NCBI GenBank assembly: GCA_044892525.1
Contig: CM097886.1
Location: 9,300,001 to 9,364,000, forward strand
DNA from: Schmidtea polychroa
Lineage: Eukaryota
Direction: 5' to 3'
DNA: 64,000 nucleotides
Below, in pieces: positions 32,867 through 56,290 of this stretch. The position numbers were made by a program, and so were the translations under genes. Each line of letters starts with the position of its first letter. The first letter of the stretch is position 1. A model generated the notes under the pieces. It saw only the letters and a program-made list of their open reading frames with translations, was not told the DNA's origin and ran no database searches.

Positions 32867-33272
32867 TTAAATCAAAAATCAAATAAATAGAGAAACGTTG
32901 AGAATGATAGGTTTGGGCCAAACTGGTTTTCAACATTTTCTTCAAGTAATCAAGTAATAGGTTTAATTTTTGATGACTTTGTAATGCATTTGACTAAATA
33001 ATTTTTTCAATAATTTTCTAAGAATATTTCCATTTACACATTGATGAACTTTAAAAAAACATAAGCTAAGAAACCAGTTAACTTTATCAAGGACTTCAAA
33101 TTTATTTGAAAATAATTGTAAGATATACTGAAATTTGTGATTTAGTTTGCTATTATGATCAATCAATATATATCATCTCTAGTTAGGTGAAATATTTGTA
33201 GGACATAATAAGTTTATTATGTCGTTGTTACATAAGTCGACTTTAGCGTCAAAATGTGTTTTTAAAATTATA

Positions 33273-35598
33273 TGTAAGGTTGCCCGTGAATATTAAACAA
33301 ATAAATAACAATATGAATTAAAGATTTAGTTAAACGAAATATATATTAAATACAAAACGATAACCAAATAATAACTAGCTGCACGCTAAAGTACAGATAT
33401 CGGTTATACAAACCGCCCTAAAGATTATTTCAAAGAATCAAGGCTGGCCTTAAATGTGCCAATAGCCCGATATAGGTGAACGGATAAAGAAGAAGGATTC
33501 CCGAGGTTTTACCGCTATACTATTAACCCAGATAAATGGTTAATAGTTGAAATTAAAACAGTCAAAACAGCTACAAAAAGTCTTGGCTGGTGACTGTGCC
33601 CTTTNNNNNNNNNNNNNNNNNNNNNNNNNNNNNNNNNNNNNNNNNNNNNNNNNNNNNNNNNNNNNNNNNNNNNNNNNNNNNNNNNNNNNNNNNNNNNNNN
33701 NNNNNNNNNNNNNNNNNNNNNNNNNNNNNNNNNNNNNNNNNNNNNNNNNNNNNNNNNNNNNNNNNNNNNNNNNNNNNNNNNTTAATAATTCTGCACTGAG
33801 TAAAAGCGAACCCGAAAATTGGTTATTAAGCTTAATTTCAATTGAGGCTAATAGATATTGGATTCAAATTCCAACCAAATAATTATTGAGACTAAATTTC
33901 TAATCGATGCTAAATATTGGATCTAAATTTCCAATCGAAGCTAAATATTGAATCTAAATTTCTAATCGACACTAGTATTCTAAATTTCTGATCGACACTA
34001 GTATTCAGTGAATCTAAATTTCTGATCGACACTAGTAGTTAGTGATTCTATAAATATCCTGGATTGTGCTTGATCGATAACTAAGTTAATAATGGTGAGC
34101 CTTAAATATTTGTTCTTCTTCTTATTTTCGCAATAATTTTTTGTCGCCCCTAAAACTAAATTTTTAATTATATTTATACTATTTTTTACTTACCTACATC
34201 TATTTTTAGTAATTATTTAATTACTAAATTTGTGTGTATAATATATAATAAAATACTATAATTATTTAAAATCTAAATATAGTAATTGTTTATTACTATT
34301 TATAATTAAGTTCTAAACTTAGTAATTTTAATTCTATTTTTGGTATTTATTTAATACTATTAATAATCAATCTTTATTTAATTCTAAAGCTTTCCTAATA
34401 CTTTTAGTTCCGGTTCCTACTGAACCCCAACATGTCTTCCCTCTAACAAGATTTTCGTCCCGAAAATTAAAGCGGTAAAGACAGGGNNNNNNNNNNNNNN
34501 NNNNNNNNNNNNNNNNNNNNNNNNNNNNNNNNNNNNNNNNNNNNNNNNNNNNNNNNNNNNNNNNNNNNNNNNNNNNNNNNNNNNNNNNNNNNNNNNNNNN
34601 NNNNNNNNNNNNNNNCAACTAGATCAAAGTTTCAAATCACAAAATCAGAATAATCAATTATTGTTCTTATAGGATAGATCAAATGTTATTGTTTGGTAAA
34701 TGTTTATCAATTTGAATAATTGGATTGGATTGGATTGTCGAAGGTGTTGGGATTGAGGACGTATAGCAAATAGCTAGGTTTGTTGAATACATAGCAGAAT
34801 TGCTGATATTTTCTCTTTTTCATGACTTTGGCACTGTCATTACGGATTCTTTGTTCTACTATGTCCGGTCTGTAACTGACCACCAATGTCTCCCGTGTAC
34901 TTACTTCTTTGTACACGATTGATGAGATGATATAAGAACCCTCATTAGCCGCCTCCAATACTCCGTAATCGGGGAAATTGGACACGGCTACTTCATGAAT
35001 TGGGCCTCCGTCGTATTCCTTGATACGCGGTTTCCATTTACTATCGGGTCTCTGCCACCAACTAGGATCTTCTCTGTCGGCATCTTCCCGTATTTTAGTT
35101 GAGTTACCTCTTCCAATGAATTCGCCTTCTTTCACTATGATTGGCTCTCCTGCAACCATGGATTCGACCTTTGTTGTCAATATCTTGGTCAATGCTGGAT
35201 CTGGTGGCTGATAGTGAGTTTCTAGCAGATCGTCATCCTAATCCTGGATGGATATCCTAGGCATTTTCTTTTTTGTACTCATTAGGATCTCCTTTTTTCT
35301 TTTTGTAGAGGTAGGGACATTTTTCTCCCTTGCCTCTTTCTGGGTCGGTTCGACCGTTGTCTTCATTTTGAATTTCAAGTCTTGTAGTTTGAGTAGTGGT
35401 ACTACAGCTTGTGGTAATGCTCCTCCTTCTGCTCCTCCCTTGGATTCGATCAACGGGGCCAATGCTTTCAAGATCTTGGTGACCCGTTCAACCAGTTTTT
35501 CTGCTGGTGGTGATTTTTCCGTTTCCATTTTAGCAGAATTCACCACTCTACCATCATTGGTAAGCGTGACTTGGAGGCAATTATCATCTGTGCTCTCT
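33273..35598 (-). mobile_element. Inverted 3'-end copy of the large Gypsy element (accessory ORFs, PPT, LTR 33273-34432)
   Basis: Reverse complement of about 53103-55260; ORFs 34707-35192 and 35238-35546 nearly identical to 53509-53994 and part of 52771-53463; PPT AGAGGGAAGA; contains two N gaps. Confidence 0.92.
33605..33781. other. Assembly gap (further gaps at 34487-34615 and 38745-38885)
   Basis: Runs of N. Confidence 1.
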
Positions 35599-38533
35599 CA
35601 TAAGTGCTTCTTATATAGCATTCTAGCACTTTTAAAAGAGAAGAAATAGGTCGTAATCATCAAAGAGCCGCCAAATATTACGAATTTTTAAATCTATTAA
35701 ATTATGATGAAGTCACAGATTGTCCAATGAGACTGTGTAACATTCCCAAATTTGAGAGGAAAAATCCTGAGTTAAACTTGTCCATAAACGTTCTGTCTTA
35801 TAATCCAGCCAGTTCCTATTCTGATATTTCTGAGGATTATGTAGCTCACCACCCTCATCTTAATATTATTCATCGTTCTAAGGTTATCGATGGTAGGCCG
35901 ATTTATTTATTACTTTTGAGTAATAAAGATAAATATCACTATACGGCCGTTACAGATTTGGAAAAGTTAATGAATTGTCATTTAAATGAAAATGTAAATG
36001 TTCAAATAAGGTGTAACTGGTGCCCACATTGTCTTAATGGGTTTAGATATAAGAATGCTTTTGATCAGCATGTAGCTCTATGCTGTAAGAATCAGACTGG
36101 CACAACACTCTACACACTTCCTAAAAGTAAAGATTTATTATTTACAGATTACGCAAAAACCGTTACACCTCCCTTTGTAATTTATGCCGATTTTGAATCG
36201 GTTTTACCAGAACATGAAACACATCATCAAATACATATACCTATCTCAGCAGGTCTTTTACTTATAAATAATTATACTAATACTAAATTTTATTTTTATT
36301 TTTTTGGACCGAATTGTGTTTTGGATTTTTTAAGGAAAGTGGAGGAAATTTCTGTCACAATTGTCCTGCCATATTATGAACTCAAAGGTCATAAAGGCAT
36401 GTCTACTTTGTCTTTTGCTCAGGAGCGTGCCTTTCGATCTAGCACAATTTGTTATTTATGTAAGAAAGATATTATTAGTCCTGTAAGAGATCATTGCCAT
36501 TTTACTGGCAGATATGTCGGAGCGGCATGTAGGAGATGCAATGTCTCTCGCAGGATTAATAAGTTATTAGCCGTTGTATTTCATAATTTAAGAGGTTATA
36601 ATTTACATCATATTTCCCTTTGGGAATTAAATATTATACCTATCTCTACAGAGAAATTTATTTCTTTAATTGCTTATATTAACAAATTGCCTGTTCGTTT
36701 AATTGACAGCGTGCAATTTATTAATTGTTCTTTAGCTAAAGCTGTGAAAACTCTAACTACTTTTCCTTTAACTTCGTCTGTCTTTCAAGGGTCGATGATT
36801 CATTCTAAAGGTGTCTTTCCGTATGATTTTGCTACTTCTTTAGATGTTCTTGAATCGACGTTTGAATTACTTTCTATTTGGTCTGATATTACGGAAGATC
36901 AGTACGCTGAGGCTCAACTAATTTGGAGTCAGCATAACTGTAATAATTTGTTAGATTATATGCTAATCTACCTAAAATTGGACGTATACCTCCTCGCAGA
37001 CTATTTTCAGCAATTCCGCGGTAAGGCAATTGCTTACAATGGTCTGGATCCACTTAATTTCTATGGGATTCCCGGTATGTCATGGGCCTCAGCGCTTATG
37101 ACATTAACGGAACCCATAGAACTTTTGCAGGACATGGAAATGTACAATTTCTATGAGGGAGGTATCCGGGGTGGGTTAACATTTGTTAACAAACATTACA
37201 CGGCTACTTCAGATGACACAGAATTATTGTACATAGATATAAATAATCTGTATGGTTGGGCTCTTAGCCAAAATCTTCCGTATGGTGATTTTTCTTGAGT
37301 GAATGATAATTTGAATGATGTTTTGCTTGAATGTATGAACACGGATATTGATAACCTTCCATATGGGTACACTATGGAGGTAGATATCGATATTCCGGAA
37401 TGTGTGCATGATTTTTTGAATGATTTTCCGCTTGCGCCGGAAAAGTTGTGCCCACCTAATTCAAAGGTTGAGAAGCTTATGCTCACGCATTGGCCAAAGA
37501 GGAACTATGTTCTTCATTGGAGGCTTCTCAAATTGTATATAGAATTAGGTGCGGTGGTTGTAAATATTCATAGATGTATAAAATTTAAACAAGGACCTAT
37601 ATTTAAATCGTATATAGACACTAATACGACTTTAAGATCACAGTCTACAAGTGAAATATATAGGGACTTGTTTAAATTGTATAATAATAGCCTGTACGGT
37701 AAATCCGTTGAGAATCTCAAAAAACGTATGAATTTGAGGTTGTGTAATTCATCCGAACAGATGATATTATACTCCTCAAAGCCGACTTTCAGAAAGTCTA
37801 TAAGAATCGATGGGGATAGCCGCACATTTGGAGAAGAACTCAATTTGTTTAGATAGACCTAGCTACATTTGTCAAACAGTACTAGATCTATCTGAACTGC
37901 GGATGTACCAGCTCTAATATATTGATTTGGAGAAGTACAGGCAACAATTCAATTGCATAATAAATATTATAGCCGGTGATACAGATAGTTTCTTTCTTGA
38001 GATTAAAAATTTAAAATTATCAACTTTATTACCTCAGATGATCTCAGATAATTTATTGAATACATCTAATTAATTATGATCCAACACACCCCTTGTATAA
38101 TAGGAACCTTGAGTCTGTTATCGGGAAGTTTAAAGATGAGAGCAAGGGATTAGGTTACTCAGAATGGGTTTTCTTACGTCCTAAATGTTATATTCTTTTA
38201 GGTAGTAAGGAAACAGTGAAAGCAAAGGGGGTTAAATTACCTGGGACATCAATAAATCATGAATCTTATTTAAATTGCTTTAATAATAATCAGGTGATTT
38301 CTGTACCGCAGACTAGAATAGGTACTAGAAATCACCAACTTTTCACATTTAAAAACTCGAAAATTGCCCTAAGTAATAACGATGATAAGCGCACATGGCT
38401 AGTAAAAAACATAAGTTATGTATTTGGGCATTATTTAGGAGTTGATGACCTTAGCGATTATGATGAGGAGGAATTCGGTCCAGCTCCAAGTCCCAGTTTC
38501 GATGACAGTTCGTGGGACGAAGATGAAATGTGA
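35598..38533 (+). pseudogene. polB: Polinton/Maverick-type family B DNA polymerase, near full-length but disrupted
   Basis: CFLYSILA, VIYADFES, endonuclease-VII-like VRDHCHFTG...C, FHNL.GY, KGVFPY, GIRGG, YIDINNLYG, KLYNNSLYGK, GDTDS, GKFKDE, KAKGV, DDKR; in-frame TGA at 37296-37298 and frameshifts after 37850. Confidence 0.93.
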
Positions 38534-39661: not shown

Positions 39662-41190
39662 GTGCCAGCGGTACCTAATCCATCTACTGACCTTCAGGAG
39701 ACGGAATCAGAGGAGAGTTCCGATGATGAACCTAGTATGGCCACCATACTAAGCGAGTACCATGTAACCTTGCCAGGGAAAGCAAAGGTAAAAGAAGGGT
39801 CAGATTCCCTAACAAAATGTTTAAAACTGGTGGATTCCAGATATGAGTACCAGCAGAAGCTGGATAGACAATTGGAAAAATTTGGAGAAACAAAGATTAA
39901 AATTCACGAAATCGATACAGTAGTAAAACTGATATCGCAGGTTGAAGATGACCCAAAGTATCATAACGACACGTACAAAATCCTAAGGAAATTAGGAAAA
40001 CTCATGGAACATGAGTGGGATCTCCAAGATGCTCAACTCAATATAAAACTCCCCAGGATAAAGAGTATAATCTCGATATAAATGTAAGAAGCCGAGCCGA
40101 TAAATTAACAGAAACATTGACAAGTATTAAGCATCAAGGATATGACTTATACTTATGTGGAATAAAATTAGAAACAAACCAAACACTTTTACAGAACGGG
40201 ATACTCCCAGGTAGAGTGACGAAGCTCACAGCAAAGAGAGCACCGAAGCCAGTGGCAGTAATGGATCAAGATAGTGTATTCTTGATTACTCAGATGGAAA
40301 TCGAGAGATTGAAGGAAACTCAACAATTAACCCAGCGACTAGGGTTGGAATTGCAAAAATCTTCACGAGATGGAGAAACCATAAAGCAAATACTAGATTG
40401 GATGTTAGTATTACGAATACCCGTATATTTGTTGGAAGCAATAATTCCACTTATACTACCAGTGGTAAAGGAAACAAGCCCATTCCAGACGCAAATCGAA
40501 GCACTGATGAGGAGAAATGGGAAAGCTATCCGAAGTCAGCCTGATCGACAAGGCAACATTAATCTAGACGTGCGAATGATTGGAAAAGAACCATCAACAA
40601 TGATTTATAATTGTTATATCAAGGTCAAAATATTAAGGAGAAATGTGATTGCCACCGATCAAACTACAGGTATATTCGTGATATTCCATGGTAGGCAAGT
40701 GGATGATGATGAATATCTAGTGGATGTGGGTTGTCTACCGTTGGCAAGAACCACAGTAATGATCATCCCAGTAACTCCACCCGAATCACAGTGGTCATTA
40801 ATGAGACTGTCAGATATAGCAAACGAAATTGTGGAAGAGATCGAGGAAATAAGACTAGAGGAAATAAATCCCTGTCAAATGGTGGACATTGACGAGGAAG
40901 ATTACTTCTCAGAGTACGTCAGATTAAATCCAGGAGAAACAAACGTAGGAGCTACTACGTCACAAGCTGTAACAAATCCGGAGACTGAAAAACCCCCGGA
41001 GAAAGTGAAAAAAGATGGACGAGGACGTCCTAGAAAGGATCAAATGAAACCTCCACCCAAGGAGCAGTTAAATCCGGAAACGATTCGAAAAATTCAACTA
41101 AAAACATTAGCAGGGATAGCTCAAGAAGTGGACGACCAGGCGGAAGAAGAGACAACGCCAGAGAGGTCGTTATTGTGGCAACGTGTATAA
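39662..41190 (+). pseudogene. Accessory ORF with two ubiquitin-like domains and an AT-hook (one frameshift near 40053)
   Basis: QLNIKLP/QDKEYNLDIN...LYLCGIKLETNQTL and INLDVRMIGK...VIFHGRQVDDDEYLVD resemble ubiquitin QIFVKTLTGKTITLEV...LIFAGKQLEDGRTLSD; GRGRPRK at about 41017-41037. Confidence 0.7.
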
Positions 41191-41193
41191 CAA

Positions 41194-43380
41194 ATGATCG
41201 GGATTATTAGGCCCGAATGGAGAATTCCAAAGATCAAGGGAATCGAAGTGAAGAAAATAACGAAAGAGGTCAAGAAGACAATGGATAAAGTATCCAAAGA
41301 TGTATCAACAGGAAATATTCAGGATGCCATAGAAGCATTTGTACAGCAAGGATTAACAAGAGGGAAAGTGGTAACATCGCTATCATTGTTAATTCAAAAT
41401 GCCTTAGCGCGAGCAGGGAACGATAAAAGGCTTATAGAACGAGAAATCGACCAAATAGTAGAAATAGTAGATTATTACCTTGAGGTGTGGATGACAGTAA
41501 ACAAATTTTGGGAAAAGGAAATAATCCCAAAACCACGATATGAAGTCGTGGAAGAAGCCATAAATAATGGTAGTTCAGGCACAGGGAACATAAGAAGCAT
41601 GATCTTGATGTTTCTGGTAATGATGGGCATATTAAAACAAACTAATTCACTGACAGTATTTGACTGTAGTAATCCTAAACTATCTCAGATATATTTGCTG
41701 GTAGATGCAATTGAATGCAAAGAGGCGTATCCGGAGAAGGTTCATCAAGGGAAAAAGGTAGAATATTACGTCTACCAAGAGAGTGAATTTTATAGAACTA
41801 CGATAAAGGAATGTAGAATTCAGAGAGCTACATTTGAATATTATTGCGGTAGTAATAGATATTCTGCTTTCCTATCCGCAACACTAATACCAAGGCCGGT
41901 AAACATAATGCCCGAAGATTGCCTAGATGCATTTTGAAACGGAAGTGTGAGGATAGACAACGAGGTATCAATCTCGGCAGAAATTAGGAAAACATTGAGA
42001 ATAACAATCACTCGAGGGGGAACAATTGCCTCAGATGGAACCTGCGAAGGCAGAAAGGAAATTCGCGGTAGCAATTTAGTTTCCTATGTGGTAGATATAG
42101 AAGATTACTCAGTGGAATTACGAGAATACGAGGGAACATTCGATGTGGCCACAGGAAAATTGATGGCACATCCGCAATGCAATGCCAAGTTCAGTAGTTG
42201 TAGAACGGGAACCACCACATTAATTTACGAAAAAATGAGAGATCATTGTTAGTTGGCATTCCTCAAGAAAATTCCTTTTTGAAAATTAAATGGAACTAAA
42301 TATCGGGACTCCCAGAATCCAGAAAAGGTTTGGGATAAAGCAAAAACGTTGAAGAAAATCAACAAACAAGAGAAGGAAGATATCGGAGAGGAAAACACAC
42401 CTCTAGTGTTGATATCGGAAGACAAAACAAAAGCAATTCAATTCGTCCGAAAAGATAAAAAGACTAAATGTGGAAAAAGAATATACGAGACGAACTACAA
42501 AGGAATTTTCCTGTCAAGAGAATATATTCGAAATGCCAAGGCCTTACATATAAAGGATATCAAAATCACGAATTATATAAATAATAAAGTAGATTATTTA
42601 TATCATGACCTGCAAGGACAAATGCAAGATATGTATCAAGTGAAATAGTCGTGAAATAATCGTGAAATAGTCGAAATAGATTAGCAATATCTATCGTTAA
42701 CCCAGAGTTGGTTACTCCAATGTTATTGGAAGATGGAATGTTTGGCTGAATCATGGGAGAAGCTATATATAGCTATGAGTGTAAACCAGTAGAAGTACAA
42801 TTAGCCAGATTTAATCAATGCACGCTAGAACTACCAGTGTCATATCAACCAGCAATATGCAACCCGGCAATATCACCATTATACAAAATAAATGACATGT
42901 GGATATCTTTGCCGGAAAGAAAACCATCTACACAACGTGTAGAGACCTTGGAGGTGACTAAATTAAAGGATACTATGGAATTCAAGTCATTAGATGAATT
43001 AGCTAAAGGAGGGATTTACACTCAGGACGATATTGAGGAAGCAAGAAGGACATTGCTATTCCCACAAATCAGAGGTATCACGGAAATTATAAGAACAATT
43101 TATCATGATACCTTAATACGGCCAGATTACAATTTATTATTTGGACCGGAACACTATAAAGAAGCAGCAAAGAACGTAATGATGAAAATATGGGGACGAT
43201 TTACTAATTTTGGTATTTTCGTCGCCGGATGCTCAGGAATTTACGCAATATTTGTAATTTTAAAGCTGATAATTACACAATTGATGTCAACATATAGAAT
43301 ATTCAAATTTGGCGGATGGTCATGAAAACTCTTATTAGGACTATGTCCTACGTGTGCAGAATTTGCATTATTCAAACATC
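41194..43380 (+). pseudogene. env: Chuvirus-G-like (gB-like class III) envelope glycoprotein with N-terminal leader, internal signal peptide and C-terminal TM
   Basis: MILMFLVMMGILKQTNS/LTVFDCS; C.I...YYCG; GTCEG; CG...YETNY; YINNKVDY; GEAIYSYECKPVEV...C..ELPV; LAKGGIY.QDD...LLFP; hydrophobic FGIFVAGCSGIYAIFVIL; several stops and one frameshifted zone. Confidence 0.82.
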
Positions 43381-44020
43381 ACAGAAAAGAAATCAAAGAA
43401 ATTAGACAGAAACATTTGGTTAAACATGAAGTAATTGGAACAGAAATGGATGAATATTCCAGTTATCGGGACGATAACAATTCAAAGGGAGGAGGTAATG
43501 GAGGCTCTTGTGAAACATCTTCAAGACCAAATCAATCACGAAAACAGAACTACAACAAAAAACCAAATCAGCAACAAAGAAAATCGAGATTTAAGGAATA
43601 TCTTCCTCCATATGACCAATCAAAGTAAATCTAGGTGAGAAGACAGTCCTCAGAAGGAGAATATGATAGTTCCGAGCAAAAATTCGACATAAGGTCACCC
43701 AGATTCAAGAGAAGCCCAAGATATGTACAATTGCCAACCCTGAGGAGTTTACCAACCGCACCAAACGATGGGCTGGAACATTCAAGGGAAACGACACTCA
43801 GAACAGGACGCCACCATTGGAAAATTGGTGAAGATACCATATTTAATAATCTGACATGTTCAACATTGCCAGAATTACCCGAAGTGCACTATCCAAAGGA
43901 AGCGTTAGAGTCACTTAAAGCTAAATTTAAAGAATATAATCCTCAACTGAGTGATCCAAAATTACTGAAGCAGAACAAACAAGAGCCAATACAATCGGTA
44001 TCTCGCACGATACAATCCTG

Positions 44021-47000
44021 ATGGTCAATAATCCAGTGAACTTGGATAAAAAGCCAATGATAAAAATAAGAGTGAACCGACATACAGTCAATGCGGTGAT
44101 AGAGTCAGGAGCAGATGGTACCATAATTGAAGCTAAATTGTTGAACCATCACGAATTACATTCGTTAAAACCGACAGGAGTAAAATTAACAGGAACAAAC
44201 GGATCCTCATTAAACGTAATAGGATCATTATCTTGTCAGATTAAGCTATGTGACCAAGAGCTCCATCACGACATCATAGTGATGAGAAGTCTCCTGGCCG
44301 AATGTCTATTGGGAATGGACATCCTAAAAAGACTACGAGGAGTAGTATTCGATTGCACATCTGGATTGTTAATCCGAGCACGAGGTAAAAAGAGAAATAT
44401 TTACAACGATAATACAGCTTATATAGATCATACAACCATCATACCACCCAGAACGGAAACAGTATGCTTTGTAGCTACAAGCAATAATTGGGAAGGTGAA
44501 GTTGTATTCGAACCAGACGAAAGGTTTTCGGAGAAATACAACATACCAGTTATTCATAGCGTAGGCTTAATAGTCAATGGCAGAATACCAATCAGGGTAG
44601 CCAATCTGGACGTTAAACCACTATACTTATACCCAGATACCAGAGTGGGCAGAATCTGGAAACAAAACGAACAACAAGCCACGGAAGAAGGGTCGATACT
44701 CACCATAAAGGCTAAAGAAAGAGAGCCAGACATTGATTACTACGACGCACCTACGGCCAATAGCAAAGTGCTAACCAGAAAGGAAAATATTCAAGCAAAT
44801 ATGCTATTGAGGAAATACGACCAGGTATTCGCGAAACATGAATACGATCTGGGAAAAACAAACTTGTTAGAACATGAGATTGTTCTCACCAATACAAAAC
44901 CTATAAAGTTGAGACCATACCGTATTCCATTCAGTCTGGAGGAATCAGTAGACAAACAGGTGAAATTGATGTTAAAACATGGCATAATCAGGCACAGTAA
45001 ATCACCATATCAATCGCCAATGATGGATCAGTACGATTGTGTAACGACTATCGCATGGTTAACGAGGCAACATGCAAAGATAGCCATCCATTGCCATTAC
45101 TAGATTATATTTATGGACGCATGAGAAACGCTAGGTTTTTCTCAGTAATGGACGCTCAAAAGGGATTTTATCAAATTAAGTTAAAAGATGAGACTATACC
45201 AATAACAGCGTTTTCTACGAGTATGGGTCATTACGAATATAACGTAATGCCATTTGGACTCACGGGAGCTCCAGCCACATTTCAAAGAGCAATGAATTTG
45301 ATGCTCATGGATGTACATCATGCGATGGTATACATTGACGACGTCATAGTATTCTCGCCAAATTTGGAAAAACACTTGGAGCATTTGGAAGATGTATTCA
45401 AGAGGTTGATCAATGCAAACATGAAAGTGAAACCGACCAAATGTAAATGGGCTGAACCAGAAGTGGTATATATTGGCCACATCATCTCACGAGATGGGGT
45501 CAAACCGGATCCAACTAATGTCGAAAAGGTAAAGAATTTCCCGGAGTCTAAAACCGTTAAACATATCAAATGGTTTTTAGGCCTAGTTGGATACTACAGA
45601 AAATTCATTAGAAACTTCTCGGTTATTGCTTTTCCATTCACGCAGTTAGAAGGCAAAAACGTCAAATTTGTGTGGGGAACAGAACAGCAGGAAGCATTTG
45701 ATATGCTCAAGGAAAAACTCGTCAAGCCACCTATATTACGATTTCCAGACTTTGAGAGACAATTTTTGGTTATGAAAGATGCCAGGCACTCGGGCATAGG
45801 TGCTGTGCTAGGTCAGAGAGATGACCTAGGAGATGAGTATGCAATTGTATACGCTAACAGAGGATTAAAACCACACGAGAGAAACTACGCAGTGATAGAA
45901 CTAGAGGCTTTAGCAATTGTGTATGCTATAACCCAGTTTAGGACATATCTATGGGGTTGGAAGATCATAGTGTACACCGATAATAGACCATTACAGTGGC
46001 TGACGAAACACACAATGGATACCTCAAAACTAGTCCGATGGGCATTAATTTTACAGCCATATGACATAGAAATCCATTATAGAAAAGGAGATCATAATGG
46101 TAATGCAGATGCTTTATCGAGAATGGACCAGGAGGAAGAAGCAGAAGATGTGAAGGAAGGGCGTCTCGAAGGGACTATCTTCACATTGACCAGAGAAGCC
46201 AACAAACTAGCCGATTTGATGGAGGCACAAAAATCTGACGAAGAGATCAATGTTATTCGTCAATCCTTGGAAGCAAAATACGTGCCCACAGAATTCACCA
46301 AATACTGGGAAAAGAATAAAGACAAGTTTGTGCTGGAGGAAGGATTAGTTAAATATTCAGATGTAAGAGATAATGTTATAATGGTCTCTTAGAAATTTTG
46401 TGAAGCACTCATGTTGCAGTATCACGATGGAGCCTTAGGAGGACACCTGTCATCCAGAAAAACATTGTCGAGATTAAAACAAAAATATTTTTGGCCAGGC
46501 ATGAAACAAGACGTTAAAACCTGGTGTCAGACATGTAAGATCTGTATCACCAGGCGAAATACCGGAACGAAACCCCACGTACCAATGAAGCCGATGCCTG
46601 TACCATCTACACCCATGGAAATGACGGCAATGGACGTGTTGGGGCCATTCAAAGAATCTAATAGTGGAAACAAGTACATATTAGTGTTCTGCGACTACTT
46701 GACTAAGTGGCCGGAAGCCTACCCGACGCCTAATCACAAAGCTGATACGATAGCTAGAATTTTCGTTGAACAAATTGTCTTTAAGTATGGAGTACCCACG
46801 AAGTTATTAACGGATTGGGGAACAGATTTCATGAGTAATTTGCTCAAAGGAATAAATGATTATTTCGGAGTTCTAAAGTTGAATACTTCCCCATATCACC
46901 CACAGGCGGATGGGTTAGTAGAACGATTTAATGGAACATTAGCTAACATGTTAGCATCATATGTAAATTCAGGGCAAACGGACTGGGACATCCACATTCC

Positions 47001-47430
47001 ATCCTGTTTATTTGCATACAGAAATGCAGTGCACGAAGGAACAGGTGAAACACCATTTTACCTAATGTATCTGAGGTAAAGTAAAAAATCTGTTGTTTTT
47101 CCCTAAAGCAACACAGTATTTAGATCAAGAAAATTATCTAATAGAGATGAGGGAAAGGATGCAGGAAGCATGGACTAGAGCAGGTCTCAGTATAAAATAT
47201 AATCAGGAAGCATCAAAAGATTATCATGACCGAAAAGCCAAGGAACGTGGCATAATGTTTGGAGACCAGGTGATGTTGGAAAGTCATTATAACAAGAAAG
47301 CTTATCACCAAAACTCATGCGGAATTTCAAAGGGTCATATGAGGTATTGAGAAATTCAGATACAAATCTCATACTACAACTTGTAGCCAACCGAAAAGCA
47401 GAACCAATAATGCTAATCGGTGTAAAAAGT
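44021..47430 (+). pseudogene. pol: Gypsy-type pol: protease, RT, RNase H, integrase (disrupted)
   Basis: IESGAD (catalytic D to E), RPYRIP, DAQKGFYQI, MPFGLTGAPATFQ, YIDD, ELEALAIV, YTDNRPL, HHCC finger, DVLGP/TDWG/VERFN; frameshift at about 45020 and several stops. Confidence 0.95.
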
Positions 47431-47489: not shown

Positions 47490-48465
47490 GTGAAACCAAA
47501 CTCCAATGAAGAAGCACAAAAACACCGATACCCATTGAGATCACGGGGTGTTCCAAAATCAGTAACTTTTATGTTGATAATAAGTTGTATGATGACCTTT
47601 GCTATGGAAAAAAGGGATAAAAAGGCCTATTTTCAGCCTATGGCGATGCGTGGAAAATTTACATTTTATAAGAACCTATCACGGAATTCGTATACTTAAA
47701 ACGTGTGATAATGCCACAAAATTCAATCTGCATTTCTACAATAAGTACTTACGGGTCCGCCAATTTAACTCAGTAGAAAGAGAATGGGATTTGTATGATT
47801 TAAAAGCCGAGACGGATTACAAACTGCACATCGCAGCATCAAGGTTATATCAGAGTGGTTGGTATACCTATCATGTATCAAATTGGATTCTAAGGACGGC
47901 GGATTTCACAAATCGCATATCGATATCTTACGAAAAAGATAAAGTTAAATTTAGTCAGCTACTTATCGGGGAGGAAAAGGTAAAAGTCAATATTCTAGAT
48001 GGACTAATCACGAGAGAAACAATATGGTTAGTATCGAACTCTCCTTCCAAAGAATATTCGGTTCTAGTTATATACTATAGTCCGAGGAAACGGCAGGACG
48101 ATAGGTGGTTCGAGGTATTCGAGGAGATATTACCTCTTAAACATCCAGTTACAACGAAAATACCACCAAAAGTAGTTAGGGAGAATATGGTGATACATCC
48201 CGCGATGTGGCAACATCTCAGACAATTGCCACCTATCAAACAAATTTCTTGCCAAACGACTCCAAACCTGACAAACTGTTGTGATTGCAATGTCATCACA
48301 AACTTCAACGCGAGATACATTCTGAAAATACCCACAGTGGTATGGATCACGGTATCGGCCGTACTATCACTAATAACCACAGTGATAGCTATGGGTATTT
48401 GGACCAAGCTATATTTTAGACAAGCCATAAGGGCTTACGACGGAGTGCTGATGTCGAAATTATGA
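47490..48465 (+). pseudogene. Second type I membrane protein after integrase, with an FN3-like motif
   Basis: Hydrophobic SVTFMLIISCMMTFAM (signal-like), WDLYDLKAETDYKLHIAA (FN3 tyrosine-corner-like), C-terminal TM IPTVVWITVSAVLSLITTVIAMGIW, short tail; one frameshift near 47655. Confidence 0.55.
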
Positions 48466-48494
48466 CAATTACAGCCTCCCCAGAGGTAAAAATC

Positions 48495-48567
<73 letters not shown>

Positions 48568-48571
<4 letters not shown>

Positions 48572-51500
48572 GGTGGGTCGAATGTTAATAAATTTTGAGT
48601 TCAAGAAAGGAAACATGGTTAAAAAGTTGTATTTTGGTATAGAAAAATCGAATCAAACCATTTTACTTAGATTTATGGACATTTACTGCTCCCAACTTTT
48701 CTCCGAAAATGCAGTTCAACATAAGTGTGAAAACAATGTAATTTGGCTAGTGTCGGAATGTGTTTTGCGCCTTTGTCCATATTTAGATGTAGCTTTCTTA
48801 AGAGCTTATAAGTATATTATTTACTCTCTTGGGCTGAGATAGTATATTCTGTGTCCTCATCCCGCATTGAAATATATCCTGACAACGTCAGTGATTAGGA
48901 AGGGCCAAATTTGAATTATCCTTTTCAAAGACAAAAATCAACTTTCGAAATTATTTTTTATTAAAAACATCCAGCCAAAAGTTTAGAAATGTATTAGCGA
49001 GGGCATAAAAAGAAGTCACATGAAATCAGCTTTGCTTTGCACCTTGGGCAATTCCTTCCTTGATTTTTTACACAGTAGTACCATACCATGTCTGGACTTG
49101 TGACCAAACACTTTGCAACTGGCAGAAGAAACATCTTTGATGGCTCTTTCAACGGCTTGAGAATGACAGGGAAATTGTTCTAATGTAATTTTCTTATTCA
49201 TCTTCAATTCATGATCCAATATATGAGATAAAAGAGGGGGAGGCGTCAAATTACATTTTGTCCAGTCAATCATGTCAGCATATGATGTAGCAGACGACTG
49301 AAGAAAGACAGTATTCTTGTCCATAGTGCGAATCACTTCGGAAGGGAGAAAATTTTGTCTTGCAGTTATGATTTTTTCTGTTGCAAACTTTCTGATTTCT
49401 TCATCATCATCACCAACAGCAGCTAGGAGTATATTTTCTGGATGTGAGAAGTAATTGTTGTTCTGAATGACAGGAAAGATGATTTCTTGGTCTGATGGAT
49501 CCAAATCCTGCAGAAGTTGGAGCATATAAAAAATATTTCTTGCACCATCTTGGCATGACGAGTGAATCTTTATATAAAACCATGACGGTCCATAGAAATT
49601 GACAATAAATTTCACTATTCGCATGAGAGGTTCAGATGGAGCAGTTTCGGACATATATAGTCGCAGAATTCTATTAGCTTTCGTTAGCCAGCGACTGTGA
49701 TTCAAATTTCCTGGTTGTGCCATTTGTAGAAAAGGGACATCCTTGTTGTTGTGGTACCCTTTCTGGACTGCCAAGCATACTCTGAGGAAATACAATTGAT
49801 CAGTGTTCAATTCTTTCTTGACATTTTCACTAATATCTACGACCTTTCCAGGAAGGGACATAAAGGCTACTACGGGCTTGTCTTTTGGATCAAAATCAAG
49901 AACGCTTCCTATTTCACCACATGACGTTTTTGGACCTTTTGTTTCTCCACCATCGACGACTGAAAAATACTTCCTGAATGGCAATTCATTTGCATGCAAC
50001 AAGCATATCAGCCATTGTAGAGGTCGCCCTAGGCTTTTTTCGAGTCTTCTGATTATTCCATTATTTTTTCCGGTGTTTGTATTGGTTCCATCGCACACAA
50101 TTGCTTGAAGGGTCAGTGAGGACTGCGTGCTAACGATGATTGACATGATTTCTTTGCCAATATCCACAGCTTTACTACTTTGAGGTACAACATGATCGAT
50201 ATATGTATCCCCTGGAAAGGCGACAATCACATAATGCTCCTCTTTTAGGATCCTTCTATGAAGTAAGGTGGAATCTTGTTTCCCGTCGAAACCGAGGCAA
50301 ATCAAGTTTTTCGCTTCTGCTGAATGCTGTTCAATTTCTCTCTCCCTCCAGTACTTTCTCTGACGTCGTAATTTTGCGGGATCGATGATTGTTTGAGAGG
50401 ATAACAGTTCCATATCTTTCAGAAAAGCGTTTACTAGCAAACACGTGTCTCTGTTGCTCACACCACATCTGTCAACAGCTTTACTTAATTCAGGATAATG
50501 TCTTCTATTTTGAAATTCATCACATTCTTCTACGCTTGACTCTGAGCTTTCTGTTGAATTGTCTAACTTATCTTTACTTTCATCACTAGCGGCTTCACTC
50601 TCCGTGTCACTTCTTGAGGTCGGATGTAGATCGTTAACTTCAGTGTCCATTATTTCATTTTTCATTTGTTTTCCTTTTCCTGTAGGGCTGCTTTTCGTTT
50701 GTTTTCTCTTCAATTTTGAGGTTTCCTGTCTGTCCGTATTTCCGATTTTCATGTTTCTGGTAGTTTGTTGGTCAATCCAGAACTCCCACTCTAAGGTAGG
50801 AATTTTCAAGGCCAATCGGCATGTACACTGACTTCTTCCACGAGCACCATCATTAAAACATTTGCAGCAACATATGTCAAACAATTTGGAAAACGAGCTT
50901 AACTTATCTTGAAATTTGGCAGATGACCTCTTGCATACTGGATACTTCTCTAATTCACGCACTTTTGATATTAGTCGCTTGACACGAACCACAATACTAC
51001 TGAACTCAACAGTTGGGATACTTGCCTTCATATAAATTTCCTTCACCTTATTTGCGAGAAGAGTTGCTTGTTCGTTAAAGCCAGTATGAAATTGCGTACA
51101 TTTCTCATTGTAACAGTAATCACGAAACACATCTTCACAAGTAGGTAATTGGTTTCTGGGTAGTTCACAAGTTTGACCAAACAGACAATGACGTGATTTA
51201 CTTCTTGTTTTGCGAAATTGCTTATTTCTCTGTCCCTTCATAACTGCTCTTCTGTACTCAGCTCCTGCAAAATAAAAGTGAATCATCAAGTTAACTTTTT
51301 TAATTATGTCCAGCAAACACTTGACATCCAATCGAAACAAATTAAATTATCTGAGTTTAGACTGACTAGTAGTATCCATGTGGATTATGTGTTGACTGTA
51401 GTGTGTGTGTTAGTATTGTTCAGAAGAAATTGTCTTTGTGAGTGCTTGTGTGAAGGTGCTTCCGTGAATTAACCTCTCTATACATGCACGCGTTAGCTTG

Positions 51501-51724
51501 GACTTGTGAATAGAGCATGTCAAAAATGGTCTTTCTGCAAGCGTGTGACTGCTTGCAGGATGAATTTACAATTTTTACTGGGATAGTACTAATACATACA
51601 AACAAAAGTTGGGACCTGTAAACCCTTTTAAACAGCAGTCTTTTGCAGGGATATTTCATTTTCTAGCATAAGCACAACTTTTTAGGCATGTTTGGAGAAA
51701 AAAAAAATTTTCGACCCACCCTAA
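48568..51724 (-). mobile_element. hATm-like DNA transposon inserted in a (TA)n microsatellite
   Basis: 14-bp TIR TTAGGGTGGGTCGA at both ends; both flanks are (TA)n. The subfamily call rests on recalled TIR and motif pattern. Confidence 0.85.
49016..51340 (-). CDS. Intact DDE transposase (hATm-like), up to 774 aa
   Basis: GFDGKQD, CDGTNTNTG, QWLICLLHANELPFR, HSRWLT, PCHSQAVERAIK; no stops; true start may be the downstream Met near 51240. Confidence 0.88.
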   Translation of the reverse strand: MFRLDVKCLLDIIKKVNLMIHFYFAGAEYRRAVMKGQRNKQFRKTRSKSRHCLFGQTCELPRNQLPTCEDVFRDYCYNEKCTQFHTGFNEQATLLANKVKEIYMKASIPTVEFSSIVVRVKRLISKVRELEKYPVCKRSSAKFQDKLSSFSKLFDICCCKCFNDGARGRSQCTCRLALKIPTLEWEFWIDQQTTRNMKIGNTDRQETSKLKRKQTKSSPTGKGKQMKNEIMDTEVNDLHPTSRSDTESEAASDESKDKLDNSTESSESSVEECDEFQNRRHYPELSKAVDRCGVSNRDTCLLVNAFLKDMELLSSQTIIDPAKLRRQRKYWREREIEQHSAEAKNLICLGFDGKQDSTLLHRRILKEEHYVIVAFPGDTYIDHVVPQSSKAVDIGKEIMSIIVSTQSSLTLQAIVCDGTNTNTGKNNGIIRRLEKSLGRPLQWLICLLHANELPFRKYFSVVDGGETKGPKTSCGEIGSVLDFDPKDKPVVAFMSLPGKVVDISENVKKELNTDQLYFLRVCLAVQKGYHNNKDVPFLQMAQPGNLNHSRWLTKANRILRLYMSETAPSEPLMRIVKFIVNFYGPSWFYIKIHSSCQDGARNIFYMLQLLQDLDPSDQEIIFPVIQNNNYFSHPENILLAAVGDDDEEIRKFATEKIITARQNFLPSEVIRTMDKNTVFLQSSATSYADMIDWTKCNLTPPPLLSHILDHELKMNKKITLEQFPCHSQAVERAIKDVSSASCKVFGHKSRHGMVLLCKKSRKELPKVQSKADFM

Positions 51725-52228
51725 TATATATATATATATATATATATATACGTAGAGCTCCAGGTAGCATTAAAATTCGGCATATGTAGATCTTTTATAA
51801 CAAGACTCATGCATATCTTTTTAGCTTATTATGGCATATCAGTATATCTGATATTTTGGTTAATAATTTTTATTTCTAGAATGCAGAGCCATCAGATATC
51901 TCAATATCAAGGAAGACAAGGAAGACATAGCACTACTGAAGGAGAAACTCATATATAAAAACCTGGAGAAGCAGGTAACTGAACAAAGTCGAAAAGGGCA
52001 ACGGCACTGGTTCTACGGTCATTGCTCAGGCATACCCAACAATTTCAAATTCGACGAGGCCCCAAAACGTCAAATGATAATTTCAAGAATCCCGGGCAAG
52101 CATAACGCCAGCATTAGGCTTACCGATGTCATGCATGAGTTTGGCAGACATATCTGACCAACCACCTGTGGATACACGCCATTAACAAACCATTTACGGT
52201 TTATGTTCCTGGTGCCACAAATTCTATT

Positions 52229-52890
52229 TTGCAGCAAAAGCATACAACCCTCGAAATATCTCACTATTATGTGAGGGAATGGACACCATCGTCGCAATGG
52301 AAATCTTGGAACCCCACAAGGAGACACAAACGAGATGGGTCAGCGAACCAAACTGGAGATACAATGTCAATGACAATGATATCAAAACGTTTGGACCCCA
52401 GACAAGAGGATAACCTCACCATTTTCCTAGCAGCTCATTACGCCACACTACGACAATTCCTCAAACCAGCCATTGTGGCAATTTCAATTTCGCATTTTAA
52501 CGGCGATTTAATCCTCAACACTAGAGTTACCCCCAGATCACAGGTCAAACATTACCAATCACATGCGCATGTTATGACCGAAAGGGAAATAACCGGACAG
52601 TTTGATGGAGAAGACTGTGCCGAAAGAATTAGGAAATTCTGCAATGGGAAAATCATCGTGGGATTATTGGTAAAGGATCTATTGGAAGTAATTAGATTTC
52701 CAATGCAACGCGCCCTCGGAATCCGTGAGTTAAGCGCAGCTAAATGCCTCGAAAATAGGGACTTAAAGAAATGCAACGGGTATTACCGTTTGGCATATTT
52801 GGCATATTTTGGCGCATCGTTTCTCGGACCTTCAAACAGGGAATGATGTTACGACTATTAAGGAAATATATGACAATCTGCGAGATATCT
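52229..52890 (+). pseudogene. ISG20/REX4-like DEDDh exonuclease domain with degenerate catalytic motifs
   Basis: AIVAISISHFNGDLILNTRVTPRSQV...GKIIVG aligns with REX4 [26 protein letters not shown]...GRILVG; NDVTTIKEIY in a shifted frame matches EDARATMELY; Exo I DxE replaced by AAH. Confidence 0.68.
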
Positions 52891-53994
52891 GAATTGATGA
52901 TATTTCACCCGATACCCGAAAATGTGGTGACATCACAAATAAAACAAACGGAACCAGAAACCTCAAGCATGCATAAACCCTTAGCTATGGAGAACTATGT
53001 AAAAGAAGACATGCCCAGGTCCAAGTTAATGAAAATAGTGGAAGAAGATTCCTTGTCGCCGCCAGCCATCTCAATTGCTGACGAAGACGATTATGCCACT
53101 TGCGAGAGCGCAGATGATAATTGCCTCCAAGTCACGCTTACCAATGATGGTAGAGTGGTGAATTCTGCTAAAATGGAAACGGAAAAATCACCACCAGCAG
53201 AAAAACTGGTTGAAAACGTCACCAAGATCTTGAAAGCATTGGCCCCGTTGATCGAATCCAAGGGAGGAGCAGAAGGAGGAGCATTACCACAAGCTGTAGT
53301 ACCACTACTCAAACTACAATACTTGAAATTCAAAATGAAGACAACGGTCGAACCCACCCAGAAAGAGGCAAGGGAGAAAAATGTCCCTACCTCTACAAAA
53401 AGAAAAAAGGAGATCCTAATGAGTACAAAAAAGAAAATGCCTAGGATATCCATCCAGGATTAGGATGACGATCTGCTAGAAACTCACTATCAGCCACCAG
53501 ATCCAGCATTGACCAAGATATTGACAACAAAGGTCGAATCCATGGTTGCAGGAGAGCCAATCATAGTGAAAGAAGGCGAATTCATTGGAAGAGGTAACTC
53601 AACTAAAATACGGGAAGATGCCGACAGAGAAGATCCTAGTTGGTGGCAGAGACCCGATAGTAAATGGAAACCGCGTATCAAGGAATACGACGGAGGCCCA
53701 ATTCATGAAGTAGCCGTGTCCAATTTCCCCGATTACGGAGTATTGGAGGCGGCTAATGAGGGTTCTTATATCATCTCATCAATCGTGTACAAAGAAGTAA
53801 GTACACGGGAGACATTGGTGGTCAGTTACAGACCGGACATAGTAGAACAAAGAATCCGTAATGACAGTGCCAAAGTCATGAAAAAGAGAAAATATCAGCA
53901 ATTCTGCTATGTATTCAACAAACCTAGCTATTTGCTATACGTCCTCAATCCCAACACCTTCGACAATCCAATCCAATCCAATTATTCAAATTGA
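52771..53994 (+). CDS. Accessory ORF pair of unknown function separated by one in-frame TAG (53461-53463)
   Basis: Both ORFs in the same frame; near-identical copy on the minus strand at 34707-35546. Confidence 0.55.
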
Positions 53995-54102
53995 TAAACA
54001 TTTACCAAACAATAACATTTGATCTATCCTATAAGAACAATAATTGATTATTCTGATTTTGTGATTTGAAACTTTGATCTAGTTGTTATTTATTATTGCT
54101 TG

Positions 54103-54154
<52 letters not shown>

Positions 54155-54256
54155 ATCAGTTTATTTAATTTTAATTTTAATTTTTGTTATCAGCTGCAAC
54201 GGCCCTGTCTTTACCGCTTTAATTTTCGGGACGAAAATCTTGTTAGAAGGAAGACA

Positions 54257-55260
54257 TGTTGGGGTTCAGTAGGAACCGGAACTAAAAGTATTAGGAAAGC
54301 TTTAGAATTAAATAAAGATTAATTATTAATAGTATTAAATAAATACCAAAAATAGAATTAAAATTACTAAGTTTAGAACTTAATTATAAATAGTAATAAA
54401 CAATTACTATATTTAGATTTTAAATAATTATAGTATTTTATTATATATTATATACACAAATTTAGTAATTAAATAATTACTAAAAATAGATGTAGTAAAA
54501 AATAGTATAAATATAATTAAAAATTTAGTTTTAGGGACGACAAAAAATTATTACGAAAATAAGAAGAAGAACAAATATTTAAGGCTCACCATTATTAACT
54601 TAGTTATCGATCAAGCACAATCCAGGATATTTATAGAATCACTAACTACTAGTGTCGATCAGAAATTTAGATTCACTGAATACTAGTGTCGATCAGAAAT
54701 TTAGAATACTAGTGTCGATTAGAAATTTAGATTCAATATTTAGCATCGATTGAAAATTTAGTCTCAATAATTATTTGGTTGGAATTTGAATCCAATATCT
54801 ATTAGCCTCAATTGAAATTAAGCTTAATAACCAATTTTCGGGTTCGCTTTTACTCAGTGCAGAATTATTAATCAGTTAGTTAATATTTATATATATATAT
54901 TAATACCTATCTCATTTTTCTCACAAATAAAGGGCACAGTCACCAGCCAACACTTTTTGTAGCTGTTTTGACTGTTTTAATTACAACTATTAACCATTTA
55001 TCTGGGTTAATTGTATAGCGGTAAAACCTTGGGAATCCCTCCTCTTTATCCGTTCACCTATATCGGGCTGTTGGCGCATTTAGGGCCAGCCTTGATTCTT
55101 TGAAATAATCTTTAGGGCGGTTTGTATAACCGATATCTGTACTTTAGCGTGCAGCTAGTTATTATTTGGTTATCGTTTTGTATTTAATATATATTTCGTT
55201 TAACTAAATCTTTAATTCATATTGTTATTTATTTGTTTAATATTCACGCGCAACCTTACA
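54257..55260 (+). repeat. 3' LTR, 1004 bp (TGTTGGGG...CCTTACA)
   Basis: Preceded by purine tract AGAAGGAAGA; the same boundaries in the inverted copy at 33273-34432. Confidence 0.88.
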
Positions 55261-55324
55261 TGTAATTTGTGGAGTCAAATCTTTTTGAGTTAGATTGAAC
55301 TACCCATCGAACCTAACAGATACG

Positions 55325-55990
55325 TATTTGAGTATTGCTCACAAGGGTACTGGTCACACTTAACAAGTCGCAAGGACATATTATTATTATTTTTCCAAGG
55401 TCATATGATTTTCAAAGTCATATTATTTTATAGTTCATATTATTTTTCAAGGTCATATTATTTTTTTTATTATTTTATTAATAGGTATTTGGGAATTGCT
55501 CACACAGGTACTGGTCACACTTAACATGTCGCAAGGGTAAATTATTATTATTTTTTCAAGGTCATATTATTATTTTTATTATTTTATTGATAGGTATTTG
55601 GGTATTGCTCACAAGGGTACTGGTCACATTTTACAAGTCGCAAGGGTATATTGTTATTTTTTTCAAGGTCATATATTTTTTTTATTATTTTAATGATAGG
55701 TATTTGAGTATTGCTCACAAGGGTACTGGTCACAGTTAACAAGTCGCAAACGTATATTATTATTATTTTTTAAGGTCATATTATTTTTTTATTATTTTAA
55801 TTATTTTCACGGTCATGTTAATTTTTTTTATTATTTTAATGATTACTACTTGGGTTTATCTCACAAGGGTAGTGGTCATACTGAACAAGTCCCGAGGATA
55901 TATTTTTATTATTTTTCAAGGTCATATTATTTTTTTATTATTTTTATTATTTTCAAGGTTATTATTTTCCAAGGTCATATTATTTTTTTT
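55325..55990 (-). repeat. Array of about five TATTGCTCACAAGGGTACTGGTCACA units interspersed with TTTTCAAGGTCATATT
   Basis: Directly visible units near 55335, 55495, 55603, 55710 and 55858; variable AT-rich spacers. Confidence 0.9.
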
Positions 55991-56290
55991 ATTATCGCCT
56001 TATTGCCACCTTCAATCTTGATATAATTAAATCCAAGAATAGCATCTTTAAAAAGCGTATGAAAGAAACAATTATTAGGTATCGTAGCATCTGCATCACC
56101 CAAAGCCTTTTTATCTTTATCTACAACCTTGATCTTAACAGTTAGCAATGTTTCATTCAAATCTAAATATTCAGTTTAAGAACCATTGATCCAATAGAAT
56201 TCATTAGAAAACCTTCTTCGAAAGCTCCATATTCAATAACCGCTTGAGACGATGGTGGATCAAATATACACAATTTATATTTACCTCAAA
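55975..56290 (-). pseudogene. Polinton major capsid protein, N-terminal remnant
   Basis: IFDPPSSQAVIEYG...EYLDLNETLLTVKIKV...PNNCFFHTLF resembles Polinton MCP N-termini. Confidence 0.7.

Follow-up and report, generated by a model that had tools for sequence, protein, structure and literature searches.

The 64,000-nt stretch of Schmidtea polychroa DNA analyzed here (the window; positions 9,300,001 to 9,364,000 of the forward strand of contig CM097886.1, NCBI GenBank assembly GCA_044892525.1) poses a question of gene order: does the chuvirus-like fusion glycoprotein found directly upstream of a Gypsy-type pol, around positions 41194 to 47430, belong to the same retroelement as that pol, and if so, what kind of element carries its envelope gene (env) there? 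The window element is a decayed, 5′-truncated, and interrupted member of a 14.9-kb Ty3/Gypsy long terminal repeat (LTR) family, its own family being termed family A, its sister families B, C, D, and E, and a diverged group F. In family A, a single frame of about 3,366 aa lies between the LTRs and runs from Gag through a putative ubiquitin-like (Ubl-like) region, a putative Bcl-2-like domain, a signal peptide, Env, its transmembrane segment (TM), protease, reverse transcriptase (RT), RNase H (RH), and integrase to a second signal peptide, an FN3-like ectodomain, and a final TM. We consider it very probable that the element in the window is a decayed GAG-ENV-POL errantivirus copy with a gB-type Env (a Burro-like element), with a polyprotein predicted to be threaded through the endoplasmic reticulum (ER) and cleaved, and with a UGA codon that is likely read into a disabled exonuclease open reading frame (ORF).

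The other copies in the genome answer the first part of the question. A genome search for the junction between the env TM and the protease, in which the best 40 of 279 candidates were scored (the window among the 40), found it collinear in at least 39 other places at 93 to 94% identity, protease site included. Ten family A copies were taken with their flanks for comparison of LTRs and stops. Seven had paired LTRs of about 1.1 kb (95.9 to 100% identical, TG...CA); a polypurine tract was present in all seven, a primer binding site reading TG(G/A)TGAGCCCGACGTGAT, presumably complementary to tRNA-Trp, in six, and a readable 4-bp target duplication in four. One copy measured from LTR to LTR spanned 14,872 nt. 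The order env before pol, which an initial annotation of the window had noted at this one locus, is therefore conserved within one LTR pair. The window is riddled with insertions and rearrangements, as might be expected if the glycoprotein and pol were separate elements joined at this locus only, but that alternative is refuted by the collinear junctions, by the LTR pairs, and by natural unbroken frames that run from Gag to the FN3-like protein, and its probability is practically negligible.

The same copies showed that env, previously taken for a gene of its own, is a segment of a single polyprotein. One natural stretch of 1,804 aa in another copy held Gag with its CCHC knuckles, about 700 further residues, and env, all in one frame. 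Open frames of 3,366 to 3,369 aa were found at five family A places, one of them flagged with a TGA inside the match, and a frame of 3,334 aa was found in family B. Among the ten copies, exactly one stop from the gag region through the downstream ORF2 was common to all that covered it (9 of 9); every other stop was specific to one copy, chance coincidences in unalignable parts excepted. For env, variants common to two or more copies gave a ratio of non-synonymous to synonymous polymorphism (pN/pS) of 0.01, from 55 synonymous and 2 non-synonymous changes; the ratio was 0.02 for RT-RH, 0.06 for the exonuclease-like part of ORF2, and 0.10 for FN3-TM. All four parts were therefore under purifying selection during the replication of the family. 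One sequencing run, presumed to be of RNA, had contigs spanning 30 of 30 bins of a copy, which was not counted as evidence of expression.

The window copy departs from this intact form in several ways. It is without the first 2,289 nt of the element (5′ LTR, primer binding site, and gag), is truncated at 39689, where homology to the other copies begins, and retains only the 3′ LTR and polypurine tract. The element had been taken to end at 47430; it extends far beyond, to 55318. Its env is interrupted by several stops and by a frameshift near 42650, and about 60 nt are missing near 42845. The parts are as follows.

39689 to 41193, plus strand: part of the polyprotein that separates Gag from the Bcl-2-like domain and carries two ubiquitin-like motifs (homology to family B, tblastn E about 1e-11).
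41194 to 41598, plus strand: putative degenerate Bcl-2-like helical domain (weak, sub-cut-off profile matches).
41599 to 41649, plus strand: internal signal-peptide-like segment of Env, MILMFLVMMGILKQTNS, directly before LTVFDC (sequence).
41650 to 43208, plus strand: ectodomain of a class III-type (chuvirus/gB-like) glycoprotein, interrupted in the window copy (PF24664).
43209 to 43400, plus strand: Env transmembrane anchor and tail, the TM at 43209 to 43286 (hydropathy, motif positions).
44060 to 44332, plus strand: aspartic protease, reading IESGA here and IDSGA in other copies (PF13975, E 2.2e-11).
45001 to 46062, plus strand: reverse transcriptase and RNase H of Ty3/Gypsy type (PF00078, PF17917, PF17919; Ty3 RT the best PDB match).
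46402 to 47400, plus strand: integrase with HHCC, DDE, and a GPY/F-type motif (PF17921, PF00665, motif positions).
47562 to 48462, plus strand: second membrane protein, ending the polyprotein, with signal peptide, FN3-like ectodomain, and TM (profile and predicted-structure matches).
48460 to 48474, plus strand: TTA TGA CAA TTA CAG, the sole shared stop of the coding region and a candidate readthrough signal (copy alignments).
48571 to 51721, minus strand: later DNA transposon-like insertion with inverted ends GGGTGGGTCGAA...TTCGACCCACCC in a TA run, foreign to the retroelement (absent from other copies).
51722 to 53897, plus strand: ORF2, broken here, with a linker, a hydrophobic segment, an unassigned domain, an ISG20-like exonuclease domain without catalytic D/E (about 52400 to 52900), and a C-terminal region (profile matches, motif positions).
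54243 to 54256, plus strand: polypurine tract (copy comparison).
54257 to 55318, plus strand: 3′ LTR, TG...CA (copy comparison).

Positions 44393 to 44851, between protease and RT, we take to be dUTPase-like, a label that the Pfam scan, blank there, did not confirm.

By its sequence, the window glycoprotein is assigned to the chuvirus/gB (class III) type, as the initial annotation had proposed from its motifs. With X placed at stops, both halves of env (41194 to 42651 and 42660 to 43628) matched Pfam PF24664, Monjiviricetes_fusion (E 3.1e-26 and 6.7e-39), as did a natural family A copy with an unbroken env (E 1.1e-86). The landmarks LTVFDC at the start of the ectodomain (41650), GEAIYSYECKPVEV (42756), CTLELPV (42819), and LAKGGIY (42999) lie in a Cys-rich ectodomain of the chuvirus/gB sequence family, between the signal-peptide-like segment and the TM. 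Two details of the earlier description were corrected: the glycoprotein does not begin at 41194, since 41194 to 41598 is an upstream helical domain in the same frame and the ectodomain starts at 41650, and the start motif given as V/GYDC reads VFDC in the window. The segment at 41599 to 41649 falls below the hydropathy threshold; in the sister families, the corresponding position is occupied by a clearly hydrophobic segment. The Atlas neighbours of Env were Monjiviricetes, rhabdovirus G, gp64, and gB clusters, a lead only, all scores being below 0.9. A point that weighs against the assignment is that PDB sequence searches with Env returned no class III fusogen, only chance EF-hand matches.

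The element is a member of Ty3/Gypsy (Metaviridae). Downstream of env, the order is protease, RT, RH, and integrase, with the RT motifs MPFGL at 45247 and YIDD at 45331, and the pol Pfam matches together with PF24664 bear out the earlier description of a signal-peptide-like segment, a Cys-rich ectodomain, and a TM directly 5′ of a Gypsy-type pol. The best PDB match of RT-RH was Ty3 RT (E 1.7e-72; next entry, E 3.9e-46). Gag of family A matched zf-CCHC (E 1.2e-7) and Retrotrans_gag (E 0.05), and that of family B matched the same two (E 2e-11 and 1.2e-9). Membership in BEL/Pao, as for Anakin, whose env stands at the 3′ end, was rejected: no BEL/Pao-type Pfam family was among the matches, and the RT is Ty3-like. 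Troyka, which has CG...CG termini, a 3-bp duplication, and no env (PMC12440569), was likewise rejected for an element with TG...CA termini, a 4-bp duplication, and an env.

The domains flanking Env and integrase are assigned with less confidence. The pre-env region of family B matched Pfam ubiquitin below the cut-off (E 3.6e-5), and the corresponding window piece (39689 to 41193) had no Pfam match. Positions 41194 to 41598 weakly resemble a helical, Bcl-2-like domain in frame with Env: family B matched PF00452 (Bcl-2) below the cut-off (E 0.002), with WI..NGGW; the family A domain matched a profile of families B, C, and D at E 4e-4 and a probability of 34%; and the PDB matches of the Bcl-2-like profile were Bcl-2 proteins (E about 0.01 to 0.03). 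Scattered through the genome are also many Bcl-2-like matches, each about 175 aa long, that have one TAG inside the match. Behind integrase, every family encodes a signal peptide, a beta-rich ectodomain, and a TM, and we infer that this membrane protein is FN3-like. The model of the family B protein matched the FN3 arrays of neogenin, DCC, and fibronectin (Foldseek E 1.6e-5), and the family A protein matched the B/C/D profile (E 1.7e-5) and Pfam fn3 at E 0.21. Telling against these readings, the Ubl and Bcl-2-like assignments are weak in family A, and the FN3 model is of family B, from a 6-row alignment with a mean predicted local distance difference test score (pLDDT) of 56 (mostly 66 to 78 in the first two domains).

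Family A is not a lone lineage, because env and RT group alike across the five families of this genome. A PF24664 search of the genome yielded 2,580 candidate places, of which the best 68 were scored; the order of family A recurs in families B, C, D, and E, whose env is 35 to 45% and whose RT is 49 to 56% identical to that of family A, and both proteins place (B,(C,D)) apart from A and E. Family E (loci L177-L179, L180-L182, and L183-L185) is 13.6 kb long with a 3,053-aa frame and a different primer binding site; it has one FN3-like domain with a Thr/Lys-rich stalk, and its ORF2, whose exonuclease is partly degenerate, overlaps the end of ORF1 in another frame. An internally deleted family C copy (L163-L164) has the env TM region in frame with the exonuclease ORF (820 aa), between LTRs. 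The layout also occurs beyond this genome, as proteins P0004, P0005, and P0006 show the same junctions (Bcl-2-like, signal peptide, env; integrase, signal peptide, FN3, TM). P0004 (JGI) was the one match of a protein-collection search with Env (7,995 candidates), 34% identical and with the GGW helix before the signal peptide; searches with the FN3-like protein gave a single match each, P0005 in one and P0006 (JGI) in the other, the latter fused behind integrase.

What such a polyprotein would be for can be framed in two ways. Retroviral env is made from spliced RNA, whereas Env here stands in one frame with Gag and Pol and would be produced in about equal amounts. That arrangement is consistent with an element that no longer forms infectious particles, that retains Env, the FN3-like protein, and the Bcl-2-like domain to act inside the cell or to modulate the host, and that moves as an ordinary retrotransposon. 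We regard this as unlikely: replicating lineages show as much constraint on Env as on RT, and its signal peptide, cysteines, and TM are kept in all five families. In the preferred reading, that of an enveloped errantivirus, the internal signal peptides would direct Env and the FN3-like protein to the ER lumen and leave Gag and Pol in the cytosol; the parts would be released in about equal amounts by signal peptidase and the element protease; Env would serve cell-to-cell entry; and the FN3-like protein may act as an attachment factor or decoy. A minority of ribosomes would pass the UGA to give a product of about 4,120 aa that ends in a membrane-tethered, catalytically dead ISG20-like domain.

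In family C, ORF2 is ISG20L2/ISG20-like with intact-looking motifs (E 6.2e-10); in family A, the ISG20-like match is at E 0.002, and the two families match each other at E 7e-16. Where family C has FMDAEY as its Exo I motif, the family A copies that cover this site (9 of 9) have FVAAHY or FVATHY. The family A ORF2 is thus, judged by its motifs, an ISG20-like DEDDh exonuclease without catalytic residues and is predicted to be dead. PDB and Pfam searches with the N-terminal domain of ORF2 were blank; the Atlas pointed to a retroviral protease, a weak lead with few shared features. A single-sequence fold of ORF2 (pLDDT 36) was unusable.

The candidate readthrough signal is the one stop shared by all covering copies. 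TTA TGA CAA TTA was found in 30 of 30 family A loci, the window included, and the chance expectation of CAR-YYA is about 0.003 per site. Within family A, such conservation mostly reflects shared ancestry, so that the diverged group F is the better test. Although its FN3-like protein is only 41 to 43% and its ORF2 about 51% identical to those of family A, group F has an identical 15-nt block, the same frame, and an open 42-codon linker, in which 15 to 17 of 39 residues are identical and 5 changes are synonymous; locus L190 ends before the stop. TGA-CAR-YYA was found in 9 of 12 diverged loci (two of the 12 being near duplicates), each of the other three being one base off. In an alignment of 14 rows, 3 of 78 cells differ in the six bases 3′ of the stop, and the CAG behind this hexamer reads CTG in 5 of the 14. 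CAA-UUA behind UGA, the tobamovirus readthrough stimulator, gave 10.1% readthrough in cultured cells with a viral reporter (PMC3159437). From these comparisons, ribosomes probably read through the conserved UGA into ORF2.

Several observations count against this reading. Families C, D, and E are without the motif, their ORF2 being separate or overlapping, and no ORF2 was found in the single family B copy examined. Shared changes in the family A linker (2 synonymous, 7 non-synonymous) carry no coding signature; for this analysis, 4 near-duplicate loci of 29 were dropped, and the last two bins, where the frame of the reference copy is probably lost, were left out. In 5 of the 24 copies that could be anchored, the linker no longer keeps its frame, seemingly through independent changes within or close to the TA run, and in-frame ORF2 ATGs stand at linker codons 43 and 67, the latter aligning with the C/D start.

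Alternatively, ORF2 might be translated from a subgenomic RNA, either spliced or initiated internally, in which case the conserved 15-mer would be a branch point and acceptor (...TGAC AATTACAG, the acceptor junction following) or a promoter element. The 15-mer does end in CAG and resembles the consensus for a branch point plus acceptor, nucleotide variation around the stop junction is low, and ORF2 is a separate ORF in sister families. This alternative could also draw on a 23-nt run with a perfect hairpin (ATATCAG-TATAT-CTGATA), 151 nt 3′ of the stop and identical in A and F (L046:4834-4857, L186:3383-3406), which is possibly a readthrough enhancer or a promoter site. A splice acceptor is disfavoured, however, because the A of the acceptor AG varies (CAG to CTG in the 5 rows mentioned) while the hexamer behind the stop is nearly constant; the argument is suggestive only, since the CTG copies are old and form no supported clade. 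The linker length and frame, moreover, are kept across families A and F. Overall, we judge a subgenomic origin of ORF2 to be improbable, and readthrough of the UGA the better account of the block. RNA folding behind the stop drew on four sequences, too shallow an alignment to judge.

A fuller version of the preferred account can be offered only tentatively, as a doubtful extension. It would have an infectious, complex retrovirus-like element with a flavivirus-style polyprotein and a pair of surface proteins, the gB-type fusogen preceding Pol and the FN3 attachment factor or decoy that follows it; UGA-CAA-UUA readthrough would meter a membrane-tethered pseudo-ISG20 that binds or shields the element's RNA, a free active exonuclease ORF (C, D) having been swapped for a readthrough-coupled dead one (A, F).

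The surroundings of the window copy are themselves rearranged. The insertion at 48571 to 51721 is TA-flanked, has short inverted ends, and encodes an unbroken 776-aa minus-strand ORF without a significant Pfam match; it resembles a DNA transposase. An inverted duplicate of the element's 3′ end, with most of its 3′ LTR (53101 to 55268), lies about 18 to 20 kb upstream (33265 to 35600) at 94 to 99% identity, a recent local rearrangement. A broken, Polinton-like DNA polymerase B of the protein-primed type (PF03175, E 1.2e-15) is found at 35619 to 38533 together with an endonuclease VII-like zinc finger, and GACCTTGAAAAA repeats run from behind it to the truncation point at 39689, similar repeats being found inverted at 55320 to 56014. 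On the minus strand, a 683-aa ORF at 967 to 3018 is presumably a hAT-like transposase, and 31476 to 32249 presumably a piggyBac-like transposase fragment, both labels being based on motifs. No tRNA was found in the window, and Rfam gave no match in 30000 to 58000.

How new, then, is this element? Its env-before-pol order is already in print (PMC13524379, PMC6431247), so that the novelty proposed for this lineage is not supported, and the premise behind it, that env lies 3′ of pol and that chuvirus glycoprotein capture is mainly a BEL/Pao matter, is out of date for such elements. Errantiviruses of Nematoda, Bryozoa, and Platyhelminthes have only ENV of the HSV/gB type (HSV, herpes simplex virus), in the order GAG-ENV-POL, and the likeness of this env to Chuviridae glycoproteins has been remarked (Chary & Hayashi, eLife, PMC13524379). 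Like family A, these elements combine a Ty3/Gypsy pol with a gB/chuvirus-type env between gag and pol at similar size, the six Schmidtea errantiviruses listed there spanning 14.5 to 18 kb. Compared by eye, env domain I of Smed_errantivirus_4 is about 65% identical to family A (66 of the first 101 columns), and the env of Smed_errantivirus_2 differs from family B at 4 of about 155 residues (about 97% identical); these likenesses point to a planarian host. Family A appears, by eye, to be a sister of Smed_errantivirus_4. No env among the six listed is a close match for it, and it represents a new family within a published group.

A similar layout has been described for the giant planarian Gypsy element Burro, in which Ubl/SUMO-like and BCL2-like domains and an env related to mononegavirus fusion proteins precede the protease in frame (Arkhipova & Yushenova, 2019, PMC6431247). 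Burro/GYPSM1 encodes Gag, Ubi/SUMO-like, BCL2-like, in-frame env, protease, RT, RH, and integrase in one polyprotein, an order that family A shares as far as its weak Ubl-like and Bcl-2-like matches allow. Burro, compared here by description only, is over 30 kb with a 4,873-aa ORF and MATH, BIR, and ankyrin domains, whereas family A is 14.9 kb and its scanned pieces gave no MATH, BIR, or ankyrin Pfam matches. Neither the FN3-like membrane protein nor the ISG20-like ORF2 of family A is named in the Burro section of that paper. Among other precedents, noncanonical nematode endogenous retroviruses with a flipped env-pol in a metavirus (Sacco et al., 2022, as cited in PMC13524379) have env before pol in another host, and the Anakin elements (Dezordi et al., PMC7642597) share the glycoprotein type but have a BEL/Pao, not a Gypsy, pol. 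Cer1, whose env is doubted in PMC10309623, was not used as a precedent.

The accessory wiring, by comparison, is undescribed in the literature searched, a scope outside of which Repbase and the figures of PMC13524379 lie: no description of the FN3-like protein, the ISG20-like ORF, or the readthrough site was found, and a word check of the main text of PMC13524379 gave no polyprotein, readthrough, accessory, exonuclease, fibronectin, Bcl, or Burro. The rotifer LTR elements Juno and Vesta carry a DEDD exonuclease as a 3′ accessory ORF3 of a Gypsy-like element (PMC5408684), but of the DEDDy type; the planarian ORF2 is DEDDh and ISG20/ISG20L2-like, and has lost its catalytic residues in family A and some of them in E. 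If the proposed wiring is correct, one accessory gene has been connected in three ways within one clade (separate, overlapping, and in frame behind a leaky stop), with catalysis lost in the readthrough-linked family examined. The FN3 membrane protein beside a class III fusogen would also be a candidate for target-cell choice, planarian stem cells being heavily invaded by such elements. The readthrough signal is the fresh part. In SIRE1, an env-like ORF is made by stop suppression. In the tobamovirus-type CAR-YYA (PMC3159437), a stop, CAA-UUA, and an in-frame downstream ORF follow one another as in family A, which differs from both systems in having UGA rather than UAG, an animal Gypsy element as its setting, and a downstream pseudo-exonuclease rather than a polymerase or env; if read through as proposed, it would provide a clear example of CAR-YYA readthrough in an LTR element from an animal.

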